64,000 nucleotides of DNA from positions 128,001-192,000 of the forward strand of contig CAWABA010000007.1 in NCBI GenBank assembly GCA_963780185.1, in the 5' to 3' direction. A program made the translations under genes and the position numbers. The notes beneath the pieces are model-generated. The model had not been told where the DNA came from, did no database searches, and saw only the letters and a list, made by a program, of their open reading frames with translations. Of the stretch, positions 20,965 to 27,896 are shown in pieces. Position 1 is the first letter of the stretch. The number at the start of each line of letters is the position of its first letter. Origin of the DNA: Candidatus Bathyarchaeota archaeon (GTDB lineage: Archaea; Thermoproteota; Bathyarchaeia; Bathyarchaeales; Bathycorpusculaceae).

Positions 20965-20984
20965 TTTACTACGTGAGGGGTCTG

Positions 20985-21287
20985 ATGTCCAAAACAATCG
21001 AACTCGCCAAAAAACTCGACGCCCTATCTCACCCCCTCCGCCTCAAAATAGTCGCCGCCCTCACCGACCGCGAAATGTACCTAAACGAAATAGCCAACAA
21101 AGTCGGCGTCAGCCGCGCCCTCGCAAAAATCCACCTAAAAAAACTCGAAAAAGCAGGGATAGTGGCAAGCCGCATAGTCACAGCAGAAAACGAAGCAAAA
21201 GCCCTACGATACTACCAACTAAAAAACTTTGACCTACACGTCAACCCCCAAACCATCCGAAAGGAGGTGGAAAACAATGGACAGTAG
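20985..21287 (+). CDS. ArsR-family winged-helix regulator
   Basis: ALSHPLRLKI...EIA...VSRALAKIHLKKLEKAGIV. Confidence 0.85.
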   Translation: MSKTIELAKKLDALSHPLRLKIVAALTDREMYLNEIANKVGVSRALAKIHLKKLEKAGIVASRIVTAENEAKALRYYQLKNFDLHVNPQTIRKEVENNGQ

Positions 21288-21570
21288 ATCAGCCATAATC
21301 GGCACCTGCTGGATCGCCATCGCCGTCATCTCAGCCATGTACATCTACGTTGGAGGCGTAAACCTCGGCACAGACATCATCGTAGCCTTACTCGTTCTCC
21401 TCGCAACAGGCATCACCTTTGCCGTCGGCTTCGGATTGGAAGGCATGCGAAGGTACGGTCCACCCTCAAGAGCAGAAACCCAAGCATCCCTCGACCTTAC
21501 CGAACTGAAAAACTCCATAATTGAACTAACAAAAAAGGTGGAGGCACTACAGAAAGAACTACAAGAATAA
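21277..21570 (+). CDS. Small two-TM membrane protein with C-terminal coiled coil
   Basis: GGAGG RBS; overlaps the ArsR stop; two hydrophobic helices. Confidence 0.7.
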   Translation: MDSRSAIIGTCWIAIAVISAMYIYVGGVNLGTDIIVALLVLLATGITFAVGFGLEGMRRYGPPSRAETQASLDLTELKNSIIELTKKVEALQKELQE

Positions 21571-21627: not shown

Positions 21628-22713
21628 TTAGCGTTCCCGTTTGCCTGCTATCCAGTCTTCTGTCCATTGGCGTGCTTGGGAGTCAGGAACTTGGACTGGA
21701 GGATGTTTGAATGCATACGAGGGCATGCTGATGAGGGTACCTGAGATTTTGCGGTCTAAAGCGATTTTGGCTGCTCGGATAAGGTCGATGACTACGCCTG
21801 CACTGTTGGGGCTGTCTTCAACTTCAAGTTTAACGCTCATGTTAATGGGGCGGTCTCCAAAAGCGCGGGTTTTAAGCGAGATATAGCAGATTTTCTTGTT
21901 CTTAAGAAACGGCACATAATCTGACGGACCGATGCGCGTGGGCAAAGCGTAGGGAACAAGGCTGGTGACTGCTTCGGTTTTGCTGATGCGCTTTGACGTG
22001 AGGCGGTTTTCTACGGTCATGTTTTGGAAGTCTGTGTCGCCGCCAAGGTTAAGCTGGTAAGTTTCGTCGACGATGACGCCGCGGTCTAGGCAGAGGCGCA
22101 CGAGGGTTCGGTGCAGTATGGTGGCGCCGACCTGGCTTTTAATGTCGTCACCCAAAACGGGCAAGCCTGCCGCTTCGAATTTCTTTGGCCACTCCTTTGA
22201 CGCATCTGAGCCGATAAATTCAGGCATACAGTTTACTAAAGCGCATCCCGCGTCGATGGCACATTGAGCGTAAAATCGGACTGCATCATGGCTTCCCACA
22301 GGAAGATAATTAACAAGAACCTGAACTTTGGCGTCTTTGAGGGTTTTGACGATGCTTTCTTTGGTGGTTTTGCTGTCATCGTACACGCTGAAGGTTTCGC
22401 GCATGTGGGGTGCTGCGCCGTCAAGAATGATGCCAGGCGACACTTTCACGCCCAAATTGGGGACGTCGCTGAATTTTTCGCAGCAGTTAGGTTTAACCCA
22501 GATGGCTTCTGAGAGATCTTTGCCGATCTTGTTTTTGTTAACTTCAAAAGCGGCAACAAAATGTATGTCCTTTATGTGGTAGCCGCCGTAATTGACATGC
22601 ATCAAGCCGGGAACCGTTGTGTCTTCTTTTGCATCTTTATAATATTGAGTTCCCTGAACCAGGGCACAAGCGCTGTTGCCAACGCCCACAAGTGCAACAC
22701 GAATTTCAGGCAT
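21628..22713 (-). CDS. ino1: myo-inositol-1-phosphate synthase
   Basis: VGVGNSA, NYLPVGS, GDDIKSQVGAT, YQLNLGGDTDF, DSPNSAG. Confidence 0.95.
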   Translation of the reverse strand: MPEIRVALVGVGNSACALVQGTQYYKDAKEDTTVPGLMHVNYGGYHIKDIHFVAAFEVNKNKIGKDLSEAIWVKPNCCEKFSDVPNLGVKVSPGIILDGAAPHMRETFSVYDDSKTTKESIVKTLKDAKVQVLVNYLPVGSHDAVRFYAQCAIDAGCALVNCMPEFIGSDASKEWPKKFEAAGLPVLGDDIKSQVGATILHRTLVRLCLDRGVIVDETYQLNLGGDTDFQNMTVENRLTSKRISKTEAVTSLVPYALPTRIGPSDYVPFLKNKKICYISLKTRAFGDRPINMSVKLEVEDSPNSAGVVIDLIRAAKIALDRKISGTLISMPSYAFKHPPVQVPDSQARQWTEDWIAGKRER

Positions 22714-22783
22714 GTAACTGCAACCATCCAAGAGTTTTCTATGTTAGAATAGCCTTAATGTCCACCTACGCTATAACTTTTTC
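22658..22783. repeat. Direct repeat copy A: ino1 5' end plus promoter
   Basis: Aligns with 24069-24191; 29-bp identical core ACCAGGGCACAAGCGCTGTTGCCAACGCC. Confidence 0.9.
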
Positions 22784-22797
22784 CTCAGTTGACACAA

Positions 22798-23409
22798 TCA
22801 AGTCTTAAGCAGTTTTCTTATTTCAAACACAAAATCCCTTGCCCGCTGAAGGGAAGTCTGCGCATATCCTCTTTTTGCTTGCACTCCAATATCATACTGG
22901 AACTTGCTCCGTTTCTTACGTTCGCCCTCATAAGAAATAATCAGTTCGTCTGCCTTTTTCTGCATCCTTTTCATCAGTTCTTCTCGACCGACAAGCTCTA
23001 ACCCTACTGTCTGGGCTTCTTCATACTGCTCGAGGAGTTTTGCCAGTTTCTCGTTTGAAGCGAAGAAGTGTATGAGTGCATCAGCTGTGACCTTGTGCAC
23101 TATCTGCCCCGTGGCTCGGATGCCCTGTTTTGCCAGTATTGCCGTTGCCGCATAAAACATGGAGTAGTATGAAGAAACGATTACCCAGAGGTAAGACTCA
23201 AAATCTGCGCCGACTTTCAACGTATCTTTTAGGGAGTTATCGTCTGATACTTCCTGCAAAATTGAGGCAGTCCGCAGAGAAAAATCAGCGTTAGCCATGA
23301 AAAAATCCACAAATCGGGCTGCATCTTTATCACCTGTCCTTAGTAAGTCATCTTTAATGTAAGTTTTGACGTTTCTTTTGGCTTCCTCTAACCGCGCCTT
23401 TTCTATCAT
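22798..23409 (-). CDS. HEPN domain protein (UPF0332-like), putative toxin
   Basis: SYYSMFYAA...G...H and RSKFQY motifs; 4-nt overlap with the MNT gene. Confidence 0.75.
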   Translation of the reverse strand: MIEKARLEEAKRNVKTYIKDDLLRTGDKDAARFVDFFMANADFSLRTASILQEVSDDNSLKDTLKVGADFESYLWVIVSSYYSMFYAATAILAKQGIRATGQIVHKVTADALIHFFASNEKLAKLLEQYEEAQTVGLELVGREELMKRMQKKADELIISYEGERKKRSKFQYDIGVQAKRGYAQTSLQRARDFVFEIRKLLKT

Positions 23410-24023
23410 AGTACTTCCTCCAATGTTTTAAGCAGAATCTCCGCCCCATATGGAACTATTCTGTTGTCTATTGCTTCCCAAGCAACATTAGGCTTTTCCT
23501 GTTTGAGGAGCTCCATAAACTCGCTATTAGTTAATATAATCTCATGGATCCCTAGTGGGCTAACACGCTGCACAGATCCTACCGCTGCCTCTACCTCTTT
23601 TTCGAAACTGTCCTCAGGAATTATTAAGAGCACGTCTAAATCCGATCTTGTTGAAGCAGTGCCCTTTACATGGGACCCAAATAGTATGAGGGTGAAGAAG
23701 GGCGATGAAATCTTGGAGGTTAAATCGTTAACGAGGATTTCTATGTCTTTATGTTTCTCAAAGAAGCGGCTAGCACGTACTCCTTCTATGTAGGCAAGAA
23801 GCGTCGAAGTGCCTTTTAGGTTGAGTCTGCAAAAAGTTACTGGACGTTTCTTCTCCGCAATTATGTAATGTTGCTGGGCTAGCCGCATGGTCATGGTGTA
23901 TGTGATTTTGTAGTCTTTTCCGATTGCTTCGGCTATTTGTCTCACTGTGAAGCTTTCCCGAATTCTTGAACTCAGAAAAGCTAGAATTTCGATTGAAGTC
24001 TTAGTTAATGGTTCTAAGTACAT
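23406..24023 (-). CDS. HTH-fused minimal nucleotidyltransferase (MNT antitoxin)
   Basis: N-terminal wHTH (TVRQIAEAIGK); LFGSHVKG...SDLD (GSx10DxD). Confidence 0.8.
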   Translation of the reverse strand: MYLEPLTKTSIEILAFLSSRIRESFTVRQIAEAIGKDYKITYTMTMRLAQQHYIIAEKKRPVTFCRLNLKGTSTLLAYIEGVRASRFFEKHKDIEILVNDLTSKISSPFFTLILFGSHVKGTASTRSDLDVLLIIPEDSFEKEVEAAVGSVQRVSPLGIHEIILTNSEFMELLKQEKPNVAWEAIDNRIVPYGAEILLKTLEEVL

Positions 24024-24035
24024 AATATTATGTAC
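24018..24035. promoter_or_regulatory. Perfect 18-bp palindrome over the MNT start codon (probable autoregulatory operator)
   Basis: GTACATAATATTATGTAC. Confidence 0.55.
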
Positions 24036-24055
24036 CTAAATACACATGTTAGCTA

Positions 24056-24191
24056 TTAATTTTGCGCTACCAGGGCACAAGCGCTGTTGCCAACGCCGAC
24101 CAAAGCTACACGAATTTCAGGCATCTAAAGGTAACCATCCGAGATTGTTATGTAGTTTAGCCTTAATGTTCGCCTACGCTATAACTTTTTC
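24056..24191 (-). pseudogene. Direct repeat copy B: truncated ino1 5' end (MPEIRVALVGVGNSACALVAQN*) with promoter
   Basis: First 19 aa identical to ino1, differences synonymous; stop at 24056-24058. Confidence 0.9.
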
Positions 24192-24379
24192 TAAAAACTT
24201 CGGTGAAAAATTAGGACTTGGGCTTGTTTTCGTCTTTTTGCTAAGTGATTGAAGTTATCCGTTGTTGATTGAGGCGCAATCTTTTAACTGTAATGGGGCT
24301 TGACTGAATCGCCCATGGAAATTCAATAACAAAAAACAATTCAAAGAACTTAAATACGGTAAGCAACAATGTGAATTAA

Positions 24380-25012
24380 TTGCTTCCCAAACAAGCGATA
24401 TGTTGGTCGTTTGAAACATTGATTAATCTTCCAAAAATGATTAATGCAGTGGGAAACGATTGCGTAGTGGCAACGGTCACCATGGTTTGCATGTATTGGC
24501 GACAAAGGAAGCAAGACTTAGACTGGAAGTTGCCGTTAGATTTTGAACATCAGAAATGGAAGGATTTTTACAAAAAAGGATTAACTTATGTACGAACGTC
24601 AGGAATGCCAGCCAATAACATTAAACGTTTTCTGAGCAAGTTAGAACTGCCCTTAAGCGCCAAACTTGTCCTTCTTGAAGACAAGTACGGGTTAAGGAAT
24701 TTGATCGACACAATGGTTCCGCCGATAGTTTTTTACGACCATACATATTTTCTAAAAAACGTTAGAGGTCCTGGACATGCTGTTATACTTGTTGACCAAA
24801 CTGACGAGCTCTTTATATCCGTTGACCCCTCTTTAGGACCGAAGTATTATTCTAAACCTGCCAAAACTGATTTTGAGGAAGCATGGAAGTTGGATCATAA
24901 TGCCACGATTATCCTTCTTCCGAAAATTGATAGTATCATAGAAAGAAAGATTCCCAGTCAGACAAAAAGCCTTATGCCATACTTAACAAGTAATCCAGGA
25001 GATAGAAAATGA
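24380..25012 (+). CDS. Papain-fold cysteine peptidase, C39-like
   Basis: NDCVVATVTMV (Cys), GHAVIL (His), VDP (Asp), FEEAW. Confidence 0.65.
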   Translation: MLPKQAICWSFETLINLPKMINAVGNDCVVATVTMVCMYWRQRKQDLDWKLPLDFEHQKWKDFYKKGLTYVRTSGMPANNIKRFLSKLELPLSAKLVLLEDKYGLRNLIDTMVPPIVFYDHTYFLKNVRGPGHAVILVDQTDELFISVDPSLGPKYYSKPAKTDFEEAWKLDHNATIILLPKIDSIIERKIPSQTKSLMPYLTSNPGDRK

Positions 25013-26007
25013 AACTAAAACTGCGCGTTCAGAAACTCGATGATCCTGAACTCATTGCTTACGACAGGATTCTAAGACACTACGGATCGGGCTGTTATGC
25101 CCAAACTCCAGAAGATAACGAAACATACTGGCGGGTTCCAATCGGAGCATATCTGCAGTCTAATGTGGTTGACGAGAAAACTGAAAAAGAAAGAGTATTT
25201 ACGCTTAACTTCCGCAATGTCGGAGAAATTACGATAAAAAAATCAACCATGCGAGTAAGTAAGGCCACACCCTTGTGGTCATTAGGAAAGAACATTTTTA
25301 ATAAGAAGAGCGAAATTAGGCGAGTTGTTGAAGAGGATTTAATCAAAATATTGGGCAACAGAGAGACCGGTATTCGTTTCGGGCAGCTCAAGTTCGCCTT
25401 CAGTGGCTTACAACCGATTTACCGCACGATTAACAGACTAATAGTGGAGGATTATCCGTCTTACGATGAAATAGTTAACGCGGGTAAAAACTATCCAGGA
25501 CAGGTTGACCTTTTGGTTGACATTGGTTACGCTGAGTACACGACCGATGAACCAAGAAAACTAATTGCCACGAACAAACTAAAGGAACTCTACGAGGAAA
25601 AGAGGAATATTGAGAAAACCGTCGATGTAGTTTTTGGCTTGGTTCTAGCAGAATTCTATTATGATTTGCAGAGATTAAGAAGAATTGCACAGTTTATTCC
25701 TTACGTTAGAGCGAGTACAGCTTACTATGGCAATGCCATCCAGTTTGGTAGATTAATCGGCATGCGAGAAAATACTCTCTGTGAGAATATCCGAGAGTAC
25801 TATAAGGGAGCACCAACGCCGCCCAAATTAAGGTATGGCTATCCTACCATAATTAGAGAACTAGTCGATGCGCAAATTCTGGAGTTCGACGATAACGAAT
25901 GTGTCACTGGAAAAATGGGCATTTTCAAGAAACTGATGTCGGTCAGGGAAAAAATACCCTATGGTGAAGTGCCCTTTCCCTTTGGAGACCTGATTAATGG
26001 GGCTTAA
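25009..26007 (+). CDS. Hypothetical protein (possibly two winged-helix-like segments)
   Basis: ATGA overlap with the peptidase gene; AGGAG RBS; 332 aa; no recognised catalytic motif. Confidence 0.7.
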   Translation: MKLKLRVQKLDDPELIAYDRILRHYGSGCYAQTPEDNETYWRVPIGAYLQSNVVDEKTEKERVFTLNFRNVGEITIKKSTMRVSKATPLWSLGKNIFNKKSEIRRVVEEDLIKILGNRETGIRFGQLKFAFSGLQPIYRTINRLIVEDYPSYDEIVNAGKNYPGQVDLLVDIGYAEYTTDEPRKLIATNKLKELYEEKRNIEKTVDVVFGLVLAEFYYDLQRLRRIAQFIPYVRASTAYYGNAIQFGRLIGMRENTLCENIREYYKGAPTPPKLRYGYPTIIRELVDAQILEFDDNECVTGKMGIFKKLMSVREKIPYGEVPFPFGDLINGA

Positions 26008-26575
26008 TCAAATTGTCTCAGAACTCGTAAAAGTCTACAAAGTTGAAGATACGTATTACCCAAAATTCTCAATAGAAACAGATATCGAAGGAGGACTAAA
26101 TGGCGAAGCAAAGATAATTGTGAATGGTTTGTCTGAGTGCGGTTTCGATATTTCAACTGAGAATGTTTTTAAAATTATGGAAATAAAAAGGCTATTACTA
26201 AGCCGTTATCTATTGGACAAGGATGGCATTGAGTCAAAGCAAAAGTATACGAAATTACTTCTTGAAGAGATCAAACCAGTAGGTTCACTTTTGCCAATTG
26301 ATTTTTTGCTAGTGAATGGGGTTGTCGCCGTCACCCTGTATTTAGTTGCCCGCTTCGGCGGCAGCTTCATGGATGAAGCAGGCAAAATAGCAGCTCAGAA
26401 AGTTTTGGGCCAAAGCAAAAAAGCAGCTAAAAAACTCAATATGGATGTGTCGGAATACAATTATTTTATTGGGGAAATTCATTTGCTCATCCAAAACGGT
26501 GAATTGGAAAGGATAGTGAACCACGAAACACTAACTAAAAGCAAAAGCATTAGAAAGAAAACAAAGTTTGACTAA
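25997..26575 (+). CDS. Hypothetical protein with one central hydrophobic segment
   Basis: Overlaps the upstream stop; GGAG RBS; LLPIDFLLVNGVVAVTLYLVARFGG. Confidence 0.65.
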   Translation: MGLNQIVSELVKVYKVEDTYYPKFSIETDIEGGLNGEAKIIVNGLSECGFDISTENVFKIMEIKRLLLSRYLLDKDGIESKQKYTKLLLEEIKPVGSLLPIDFLLVNGVVAVTLYLVARFGGSFMDEAGKIAAQKVLGQSKKAAKKLNMDVSEYNYFIGEIHLLIQNGELERIVNHETLTKSKSIRKKTKFD

Positions 26576-26708
26576 GTGCAGTCCGTCAAAGCGCGATGTA
26601 TTTTTTATGGTGCATGAATTCATGGCAAAATTAAAAGGGAACCACCGACACACTAGTTGACCAGCTGAAGATGAAGTTCAGTTTCTGGAAAATTGTGAGC
26701 CATTGATT

Positions 26709-27113
26709 TCATTTTCGTATTCGTAGTAGGTTTATGTTTGCGCCGTTGAATTCTTTGTCGCTGCCGACTACTAGTTTGGCTTTGTTGGCTTGGGCGGTGG
26801 CTACTGCGAAGGCGTCTGCTAGAGACATTGAATGTTTTGATTTGAGAAGGGCAGCTTCTCTCCACAGTCCGTCGTCTTCTATTGGAACGACTTTCAGGCC
26901 CATTTGTCGGAGCTTCTTCTCTTTTTCTTCCGCTAATTTCGGGTCTTTCCGACTGAGGATGTAATAGATTTCGGCTAGGTTGATTATGTTTATGTTGCCG
27001 TCGGCTGAGCCGTCACCGATCTGTTCAAGGATATCTTGAACAACTTCTGCTCCTTCTTCATTCAAATAGAAGGCAAGTAAGGCTTCTGCATCAAATGTGT
27101 AGTTTTCGGGCAC
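26709..27113 (-). CDS. vapC: PIN-domain VapC toxin
   Basis: FDAEALLA, NLAEIYY, SLADAFAVATA, SDKEF; GTG start inferred at 27113. Confidence 0.85.
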   Translation of the reverse strand: MPENYTFDAEALLAFYLNEEGAEVVQDILEQIGDGSADGNINIINLAEIYYILSRKDPKLAEEKEKKLRQMGLKVVPIEDDGLWREAALLKSKHSMSLADAFAVATAQANKAKLVVGSDKEFNGANINLLRIRK

Positions 27114-27360
27114 GGCGTTCAAGCTTCCGCTCTTCTGCATATTCTTCTTTTCGCGCCTCTTCAAGAAGCTGCTTTGCGGTTTTTCCTTTGAAAATCTCCT
27201 TCAACGAGCCTCGTTCCTGGCTGGGCAAAGGTGCTGGTCTAAGAACGATTCCGCATTCGTTTTCTTCGAAGATGACCTTGTTCGTTATGCCATATTTCTG
27301 TCTTAATTTTTTAGGTATCGTCGCCTGCCCCTTTTTTGTGACTGAAACAACTTCAACCAT
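27091..27360 (-). CDS. AbrB/MazE-family antitoxin
   Basis: VTKKGQATIPKKLRQKYGI. Confidence 0.85.
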   Translation of the reverse strand: MVEVVSVTKKGQATIPKKLRQKYGITNKVIFEENECGIVLRPAPLPSQERGSLKEIFKGKTAKQLLEEARKEEYAEERKLERRARKLHI

Positions 27361-27515
27361 CCAAACGAACTCCAAGTAATAACATCTGAACCAGTAATAC
27401 TTAAACTTAATGGGAATACTATTCCGAAAAGTAGCACACCAGTTCAGCGTGCGAAAACAAGGGTTTACGGTAATATTAAAAGGGAACCGCTTACACCTTA
27501 AATATCCAGCTAAGG

Positions 27516-27896
27516 ATGAGTGTTATGAGTGCACCTGAAGTAAACATTTCCTACTCGCCATTCAAAGAAATTGTTGTTATGGAGAAAACCTTCTTCACCA
27601 CGCCTGAAGACATAGCAAGATTCACCTCCGTCATAGCAGGGGGCAAACTTGCGGGGCTTTACTGGGTTGAAGGCGTAGTCTTCCTATATTTCCCCCTCCC
27701 AGCATCAACAACCGCCGTGGCACGAGAGCTGCTGGAGAACCGCAAAGTTTTCTGGACGTTTGTCGGTTACTCGCTTATGCCAAAGTATGCGCAGACGATT
27801 GAAACTAAAGAAAGAATGATTGTTCCAGTCGTAGACATATCATCTGATCCTGTTCTGAAACAGGTTGCTATTTGGCTAAAAGAACAGCCGAAGTAA
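27516..27896 (+). CDS. Hypothetical protein
   Basis: 126-aa ORF, co-oriented with ribK, TATA-like element upstream. Confidence 0.7.
   Translation: MSVMSAPEVNISYSPFKEIVVMEKTFFTTPEDIARFTSVIAGGKLAGLYWVEGVVFLYFPLPASTTAVARELLENRKVFWTFVGYSLMPKYAQTIETKERMIVPVVDISSDPVLKQVAIWLKEQPK

Follow-up and report, generated by a model that had tools for sequence, protein, structure and literature searches.

The insertion of restriction-modification genes with long target duplication was reportedly described by Nobusato and colleagues in 2000. Since then this route of gene mobility has lacked an explanation, and in the parts of the literature covered here it is documented for restriction-modification genes of bacteria (Furuta et al., 2010; PMC2853133). 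The criteria used in that study were an empty site, a duplication of more than 30 bp, an insert of less than 20 kb without a mobility gene, and restriction-modification cargo; as far as the accessible parts of its text go, no archaeal case survived the screen, the term "toxin-antitoxin" is absent, DNA breakage by the cargo is proposed as the common factor, and tRNA cases are discussed. Here we analyze a comparable arrangement in a 64,000-nucleotide stretch of DNA (the window, positions 128001-192000 of contig C7) from a metagenome-assembled genome (MAG) of a soil archaeon of the Bathyarchaeia (G000; 2.75 Mb in 13 contigs, the largest of 945 kb), where a cassette of two genes, encoding a minimal nucleotidyltransferase (MNT) and a HEPN-like protein, lies between two copies of the 5' end of ino1, the gene for myo-inositol-1-phosphate synthase. 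We consider it probable that this cassette is an insertion with long target duplication, situated in a hotspot for toxin-antitoxin and defence genes between ino1 and the divergent gene o126, and that it was brought there by host homologous recombination with foreign DNA. The literature searched, which did not extend to subscription-only papers, yielded no description of long target duplication for toxin-antitoxin cassettes or in archaea.

The ino1 case resembles the bacterial insertions in that a small addiction-type unit without a mobility gene is bounded by variable long direct repeats, that the empty site is single-copy, that gene ends and tRNA genes often serve as targets, and that the mechanism is unexplained, so far as the bacterial cases are covered by the source (Furuta et al., 2010). 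At ino1, an empty site was found in 11 of 39 relatives, the duplication amounts to approximately 133 bp, and the insert of 1.27 kb holds the MNT and HEPN genes only; its cargo consists of an NTP_transf_2 protein and a HEPN-like protein rather than restriction-modification enzymes. The two also differ in the repeats, which are at least about 88% identical among the table rows listed by Furuta et al. (2010) but 79-85% identical at ino1, where one copy is a foreign allele, and in the cargo, which in the accessible parts of that paper consists of bacterial restriction-modification genes and here of archaeal putative toxins of the RNase or Fic type.

Conserved anchor genes also bound the defence-island hotspots of bacteria, for example the immigration control region of E. 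coli (PMC12707154). As that source describes them in the parts covered, such hotspots share with the ino1/o126 region the conserved boundary genes, the empty state in some strains and the variable defence or addiction cargo in others, whereas the cargo units analyzed here carry their own duplicated anchor promoter or gene end.

Integrase-borne integrative elements restore the tRNA or protein gene that they enter with a fragment of their own, and integrase-less derivatives of them exist. As in these elements, the repeats described here are direct and located at a gene end, the element supplies an end that preserves the gene, and an identical core is embedded in diverged arms; in contrast to them, no integrase was found here or in 13 related islands, one cargo family is present at many unrelated targets, and the repeat ends are variable. 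In archaeal genetics, the pop-in integration of a non-replicating circle duplicates the homology segment around the insert, generates chimeric copies and reverts by pop-out. A direct duplication, with copies that would be chimeras of donor and recipient, is likewise seen at ino1, but pop-in is a laboratory construct, and to the best of our knowledge natural circles carrying a gene end together with a toxin-antitoxin operon have not been shown.

The MNT-HEPN-like operon and the two copies of the ino1 5' end

The intact ino1 gene (21628..22713, minus strand) encodes a protein of 361 aa that matches Pfam PF01658 (Inos-1-P_synth, 102 bits) and shares 84-98% amino-acid identity with the orthologues of same-genus genomes. 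Its promoter and first 19 codons are present twice, and alignment places the two copies as a direct repeat of about 133 bp, 1411 bp apart, on either side of the MNT-HEPN operon. Copy A (22658..~22790, minus strand) consists of the working promoter, including a BRE/TATA-like element AAAAAGTTATAGCG, and codons 1-19 of ino1, and copy B (24069..~24201, minus strand) of a second promoter and 19 codons that point into the operon. The repeat finder returned a 96-nt pair of 80% identity at a spacing of 1411 (D1) and a 39-nt pair of 90% identity at a spacing of 1408 (D4), and overall the copies are 79-85% identical to each other. A 29-bp core (22658..22686 and 24069..24097) is identical in both and encodes the conserved GVGNSAC Rossmann motif; a 28-base probe taken from it gave two exact matches in the pattern search, with none expected from 100 shuffles. 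In alignment with the relatives, the core coincides with the most conserved codons of ino1, those of the NAD-binding motif, and may be regarded as a candidate crossover zone. The coding differences between A and B affect four codons (GTT/GTA, GCA/GCT, CTT/TTG, and GTG/GTC) and are all synonymous, and the open reading frame (ORF) of the copy B stub (24056-24124, minus strand) begins with the ATG at 24124 and ends after 22 codons with a stop at 24056-24058. Alignment, pattern search and repeat finder thus agree with the first-pass annotation of this DNA on the two direct copies, their distance, the core, the synonymous differences and the 22-codon upstream copy. Elsewhere in G000 (C6:133876-134889), as in most members of the genus, there is a further ino1-like gene that is only distantly related (44% amino-acid identity).

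The origin of the copies was judged against a genus set of 120 genomes, G000 included, all of which are MAGs; the relatives compared are non-independent samples. Copy B has its best match in the working copy of G088 (94%), and from the conserved TATA-like GAAAAAGTTATAG motif to the ATG it is identical to the G088 working promoter at 66 of 66 positions. By its flanking genes G088 is a closest relative of G000, with 94% nucleotide identity in the acetyl-CoA-synthetase-like gene. Copy A reached 85-86% with its best match among the 119 other genomes. A working copy that is divergent, a stub that resembles the resident sequence, and coding differences that are all synonymous represent the reverse of decay in place, and copy A is therefore taken as foreign and copy B as the displaced resident. 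We conclude that the intact ino1 gene appears to run on an imported promoter and 5' end, an assignment that rests on the lineages sampled; the replacement promoter and 5' end that had been proposed on first inspection are supported by these comparisons.

The two cassette genes overlap by 4 nt on the same strand. The upstream gene (23406..24023, minus strand) encodes an MNT-type protein of 205 aa, the putative antitoxin, which matches NTP_transf_2 (PF01909) with 28.5 bits against a cut-off of 21 and has an N-terminal winged-helix region of about 90 aa. Minimal nucleotidyltransferases are marked by the motif G[GS]x9-13DxD, and a motif of this type is present in the translation as GSHVKGTASTRSDLD. 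Membership in the NCBIfam MntA equivalog was rejected (NF047752, 25.2 bits against a cut-off of 60), PADLOC returned weak nucleotidyltransferase-type matches only, and so did the PDB sequence search, with two. The downstream gene (22798..23409, minus strand) encodes a HEPN-like (UPF0332-type) putative toxin of 203 aa, whose match to Pfam HEPN lies below the cut-off (PF05168, E 0.005, 17.5 bits against 22). The protein is helical and contains an RATGQIVH motif resembling Rx4-6H, the R of which is replaced by K in the homologue of genome G071. Its homologues form 478 clusters and are called UPF0332 by one source. No relative was found in the PDB by sequence search, and an AlphaFold2 model built with 14 close homologues had a mean pLDDT of 51.8, too poor for a fold search. 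"MNT-HEPN-like pair" is accordingly used here as a working name with a HEPN assignment that is not firm, and the pair as a putative toxin-antitoxin system. It shares with the known MNT-HEPN pairs (type II, or type VII HepT-MntA) the overlapping two-gene operon, in which a GS...DxD MNT precedes a helical, putatively HEPN-like protein that has a candidate Rx6H-like motif, and is distinguished from them by the additional winged-helix N-terminus of about 90 aa, by a score short of the MntA equivalog, and by a HEPN match below the Pfam cut-off.

Upstream of MNT, the cassette has a region of its own (24018..24068, minus strand), with a palindrome GTACATAATATTATGTAC (24018-24035) over the MNT start codon and the end ...GCGCTAC, which is conserved in 10 of 10 aligned cassette copies. 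Nucleotide homology to the copy of G127, which lies at an unrelated locus, covers exactly 22796 to 24069, so that the cargo unit comprises the operon, about 48 bp upstream of it and about 10 bp past the stop, and measures about 1.27 kb rather than the 1.4 kb first estimated. No transposase domain was detected by Pfam in either cassette gene. The cassette was also considered as a transposon or insertion sequence, and this was rejected on the missing transposase domain, on inverted flank repeats at 0 of 55 metagenome loci, and on duplications whose length varies from 27 to 165 nt.

Mobility of the cassette and its occurrence at other targets

Ten of the 120 genus genomes carry MNT, and in six of the ten (G000, G127, G072, G019, G098, and G071) a full-length HEPN gene adjoins it, while in the other four HEPN is truncated or absent. 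In G004, MNT lies at ino1 as well, in the same orientation and with an ino1 stub alongside. The MNT gene and its upstream region are 94.6% identical in nucleotides between G000 and G004, as against 70-84% for housekeeping genes of the two genomes (73-84% for the five flanking genes gcvH, ino1, o126, the acetyl-CoA-synthetase-like gene, and o296), which indicates transfer of the cassette between species and upholds the mobility that had been ascribed to it. At the G004 junction, the cassette end GCGCTAC is unchanged but the ino1 stub is 51 nt longer. In addition, second copies of the ino1 promoter occur in 5 of 41 sources, and the duplication has four different end points, namely the ATG, codon ~6 (found twice), codon 19 and codon ~31. 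A fixed att site at the 29-bp core is thus not supported. In place of HEPN, G004 has about 1 kb with a class I methyltransferase-like ORF (L029 4460-5020), which leaves MNT as an orphan, and no match to this segment was found in 40 other loci; a type IIG restriction-modification gene of 943 aa (L029 6079-8910) follows just past the ino1 stub. Contigs with the G004-like form were recovered from two other sequencing runs as well, X2 (5107 bp) and X7 (3068 bp). Thirteen runs had been considered, each of them holding at most 0.18 of the sampled words, and four were compared, as contigs only, so that window parts without cover carry no meaning; run X1 is possibly the source sample.

The same cassette family is bounded by duplications of other genes. 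In G019, the cassette lies between a complete tRNA-Asn and a 55-nt duplicate of its 3' part, which extends from the anticodon loop to the 3' end and is 91% identical (L068 738-792 and 2220-2296 for the two). In the complete tRNA-Asn, the T-loop is unusual (TTCGTTT) and the acceptor stem contains two G-U pairs, and the 55-nt remnant keeps the canonical TTCGAAT. It may be that the working tRNA-Asn of G019 carries an imported 3' half. In G071, the last ~135 nt of the deoxyhypusine synthase (DHS) gene are found on both sides of the cassette, 77-83% identical. Among 17 distinct cassette loci in genomes, flanking repeats were seen at four and more weakly at one. Of 80 metagenome loci, 55 were usable in that they contained both genes and no less than 150 nt of sequence to either side. 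Direct repeats of 27-165 nt and 72-99% identity flank the cassette at 17 of these 55, compared with 0 of 55 in the control, for which inverted-orientation repeats between the flanks were counted. Several loci were seen twice, and the 17 represent 13 distinct repeat sequences besides ino1; the idea of one conserved attachment sequence for the family was rejected on this count. Specificity for ino1, implied by the first-pass annotation, gives way likewise, since at least 13 other targets are duplicated around the same cassette family. Repeat and operon are separated by -1 to 282 nt on one side and by 10 to 592 nt on the other. On one metagenome contig, the 3' end of the Cas6 gene is duplicated around MNT-HEPN over 165 nt with 99.4% identity (L185 552-716, 2209-2373), and this is the youngest-looking insertion among those found. 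A search of the intervals between repeat and operon for older target fragments at the repeat-flanked loci returned nothing beyond same-locus orthologues and subfamily 3' regions.

The targets are also not reserved for MNT-HEPN. A second nearby copy of the DHS 3' end is present in 8 of 120 genomes, and the DNA between the copies encodes PIN proteins (three genomes), two MazE-PIN pairs (one), MNT-HEPN (one), a flavodoxin-like protein (one), 4 kb of unknown genes with a PadR gene (one), or nothing recognisable (one); PIN or MNT-HEPN is thus the cargo in five of the eight. In G082, the DHS repeats measure 51 nt and are 98% identical. A self-comparison of G000 returned 125 nearby direct-repeat pairs, from which 28 short ones were picked by eye after dropping obvious arrays of repeat domains and paralogues, and approximately six of the 28 are paralogues. 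The candidate repeat-bounded cargo comprises Fic (twice), VapBC, MNT with Mrr, a group of PIN, MazE, Mrr, ThsA-Macro and ART, a NACHT protein, and an AAA_14/DUF4143 ATPase, and one of the Fic inserts sits at the 3' end of a second deoxyhypusine-synthase-like gene. Candidate inserts with direct repeats of 44-122 nt are located at C10:52458-53506, C11:29175-30101, C11:69017-69992, C6:165032-169032, C6:735339-738843, and C1:12907-14323. The ino1 case is an instance of a recurrent, recombinase-free settling of toxin-antitoxin cassettes at conserved gene ends in this archaeal group.

The ino1-o126 hotspot

In the genus, the usual order is gcvH and ino1, followed by the divergent genes o126, o128 (riboflavin-kinase-like) and the acetyl-CoA-synthetase-like gene. 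We compared the ino1 locus in 39 relatives. Eleven of them have the empty site, in which the start codons of ino1 and o126 lie no more than 250 bp apart, back-to-back and with one promoter copy each; the distance is 0.4-1.3 kb in seven, nine hold islands of 2.4-7.4 kb between the two genes, as does the window, and in 12 o126 lies elsewhere or outside the compared stretch. Empty sites and variable cargo were what the first-pass annotation had asked to be looked for in relatives, and both are present. Among the 48 ORFs scanned in the islands of 13 genomes are those for PIN/MazE pairs, for a type IIG restriction-modification enzyme, for an N6/N4 methylase accompanied by a GHKL ATPase, for ParB with a PAPS reductase, for DprA-SLOG with a PRTase, and for a ubiquitin-like E1 system. 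None of these 48 ORFs, which come from 13 ino1 islands, matches the integrase family PF00589, in keeping with an integrase-less insertion at the ino1 5' end as originally annotated. Of the further statement that no recombinase is encoded in the window, the part on tyrosine recombinases stands (three PF00589 matches in G000, all of them outside the window), the search having covered this class only and not serine recombinases or transposases. In five genomes (G010, G023, G002, G015, and G131; L026, L027, L033, L039, and L054), o126 is found on the gcvH side of ino1, which implies an inversion or relocation of the gcvH-ino1 block with respect to o126. The ino1-o126 island of G071 (L051 11753-13554) encodes Multi_ubiq, an E1-like ThiF/DUF6791 protein and DUF6527. 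Between gcvH and ino1 of the window (20973-21570), an ArsR-type regulator and a membrane protein of 113 aa are encoded by an insertion that is common to G088 alone of the 39 relatives (90% and 71% amino-acid identity), which likewise marks G088 as a closest relative.

Across the island of the window, from ~22800 to ~27400, the GC content is lowered to 37-46%, as against about 50% outside it. Between copy B and the first copy of the o126 promoter lies a module of three co-oriented genes (24380..26575, plus strand; 210, 332, and 192 aa), which has no match in Pfam, PADLOC or NCBIfam and no tblastn match in the ino1 loci of the 39 relatives. Its GC content is 37-42%, compared with ~50% in the flanks, and it is a separate insertion in the ino1-o126 hotspot. 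The 210-aa protein shows a Cys...His pattern and looks peptidase-like by eye. Further on, a second long target duplication is formed by two copies of the o126 promoter, 56 nt each and 73% identical (repeat D2). The left repeat (26619..26674, plus strand) is a remnant with promoter and ATG, recognised by alignment to the o126 upstream regions of relatives, and the right one (27464..27519, plus strand) is the working promoter with the start codon and is of the resident type, identical to G120 at 51 of 56 positions and to G088 at 48 of 55. The remnant agrees with G016 at 44 of 56 positions, compared with 41-42 of 55-56 for the resident types, a difference too weak for calling its origin. Enclosed by the two copies is a pair of VapC (PIN, 64.8 bits) and a VapB of the MazE/AbrB type (MazE_antitoxin, 28.9 bits) at 26709..27375 on the minus strand. 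The 4.8-kb island is thus made up of at least three separate insertions, and two of these are toxin-antitoxin pairs, each with the duplicated promoter of one anchor gene.

Mechanism, rival explanations and significance

Since the copies at ino1 are diverged alleles, homologous recombination with foreign DNA is indicated for this locus. The cassette could have arrived by a single crossover of a circle carrying a 5' fragment of the donor ino1, or by a double crossover with a donor allele in which the duplication was already present; either route would give a foreign working copy and a stub that is resident in its promoter portion. ino1 would then be transcribed from the imported promoter with the imported first ~12 codons (copy A), and the resident promoter with its 19 codons would remain as a dead stub (copy B) firing into MNT-HEPN. 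The cassette would be deleted if its two repeats recombined, and the loss of the antitoxin would then be penalised, so that inserts with addiction modules would persist. We surmise that such retention offers the simplest explanation for the frequency of addiction-module cargo. As for the first duplication at a new target, the near-identity of the youngest repeats suggests that it may be a true duplication made at insertion.

A number of observations weigh against this explanation. Homologous integration of a circle spreads a cassette between orthologous loci only and cannot explain its first arrival at 13 or more targets, and the 165-nt repeats at Cas6, with 99.4% identity, look like a true duplication at insertion. 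No clear flanking repeat was seen within 500 bp at 12 of the 17 distinct cassette loci in genomes. In the eight genomes with a duplicated DHS 3' end, the remnants are simply the more decayed copies and leave the origin of either copy undecidable; an imported working copy is therefore a pattern seen at ino1 only. Moreover, copy A and the G004 stub are only about 80% identical, where a shared carried fragment would predict closeness. A sliding 90-nt comparison of ino1 with 38 relatives gave a mosaic and noisy identity in which the left crossover is not placeable, and the mosaic suggests that recombination within the gene may be frequent. The circular intermediate assumed by the first-pass annotation likewise found no backing, for no circle, excision product or pop-out junction for the form of the window was detected in the contigs of the four runs (each with at most 0.18 of the sampled words). 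Finally, the call of foreign and resident copies would be wrong if the contig, which like all the genomes compared belongs to a MAG, were chimeric, with different strains joined at the 29-bp core. Joints in run X2 that skip 1424/1432 nt or go back had been considered as excision products and were rejected, as their source is a G004-like contig compatible with either repeat copy. In ino1, positions 460-550 are 91% identical to G088 and 81% to G120, and positions 820-910 are 94% identical to G120 and 82% to G088.

The alternatives differ in what they make of the repeats. If the cassette were a non-autonomous site-specific element, similar to a cis-mobilisable element, copies A and B would be attL and attR, the 29-bp core would be the site of strand exchange, and the integrase would act in trans. 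This would agree with an identical core within diverged arms, with the sister copy in G019 at the 3' part of tRNA-Asn, a classic integrase target, and with the three tyrosine-recombinase matches in the genome; the core, however, is simply the most conserved stretch of ino1 (the NAD-binding motif), and the sister cassette in G004 has the same end next to a stub that is 51 nt longer. The unrelated sequences duplicated around this one family, at least 13 in number, the variation in repeat length (27-165 nt) and in the spacing between repeat and operon, and the absence of PF00589 from the 48 ORFs of the 13 ino1 islands point in the same direction as the G004 junction, so that a trans-acting integrase is unlikely as the general cause, and we hold an attL/attR origin of the ino1 copies to be improbable.

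Near-identical repeats in the young cases, at Cas6 (165 nt, 99.4%) and at the DHS gene of G082 (51 nt, 98%), together with DHS remnants that are the more decayed copies, are what one would expect of a true local duplication of the target, which at ino1 would have happened in the G000 lineage without any foreign fragment, the copies diverging in place afterwards. It is hard to reconcile with the ino1 copies themselves, as the deviant copy is the working one, A, which matches nothing at more than 86%, the functionless stub B has a promoter identical to that of a relative at 66 of 66 positions, and all six coding differences are synonymous, the opposite of decay in place; we therefore think it unlikely that the ino1 duplication arose in this way. 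That the arrangement is an artefact of assembly, due to a chimera of strains or to a repeat that was collapsed or expanded, appears highly improbable. An exact repeat of 29 bp in a MAG could mislead an assembler working with short k, but the same architecture of promoter copy, cargo, MNT and ino1 stub was assembled independently in G004 and in contigs of X2 and X7. Three perfect 151-bp contigs of X1, possibly the source sample, match the two junctions (e.g., 23939-24089 and 24140-24290), and the 13 contigs of up to 945 kb suggest that long reads may have been used. Insertion with long target duplication, brought to ino1 by homologous recombination with foreign DNA, thus remains the best fit.

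A signature documented, in the parts of the literature covered, for restriction-modification genes of bacteria is seen here with toxin-antitoxin cargo in an uncultured archaeal class, at the 5' ends of ino1 and o126, the 3' ends of DHS and Cas6, and at tRNA-Asn. As the toxins are predicted to be of the RNase or Fic type, breakage of DNA by the cargo would not be the common cause, and addiction-based retention becomes a testable alternative. On a broader scale we speculate, with some doubt, that toxin-antitoxin operons of the Bathyarchaeia, and perhaps of archaea, form a recombinase-free class of mobile units, which would settle with long target duplication at the ends of conserved genes and tRNA genes, spread between species by homologous recombination with a replacement promoter or gene end, and be kept because repeat-mediated loss removes the antitoxin; addiction, and not DNA cleavage by the cargo, would then be the property shared with restriction-modification insertions. 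The insertions collected here differ in age, their repeats ranging in identity from 99% to 72%, which makes a dissection of the mechanism possible. For the archaeon itself, the locus suggests that an essential housekeeping gene can exchange its promoter and first codons for those of a foreign allele when a selfish unit inserts, as a by-product of that event.

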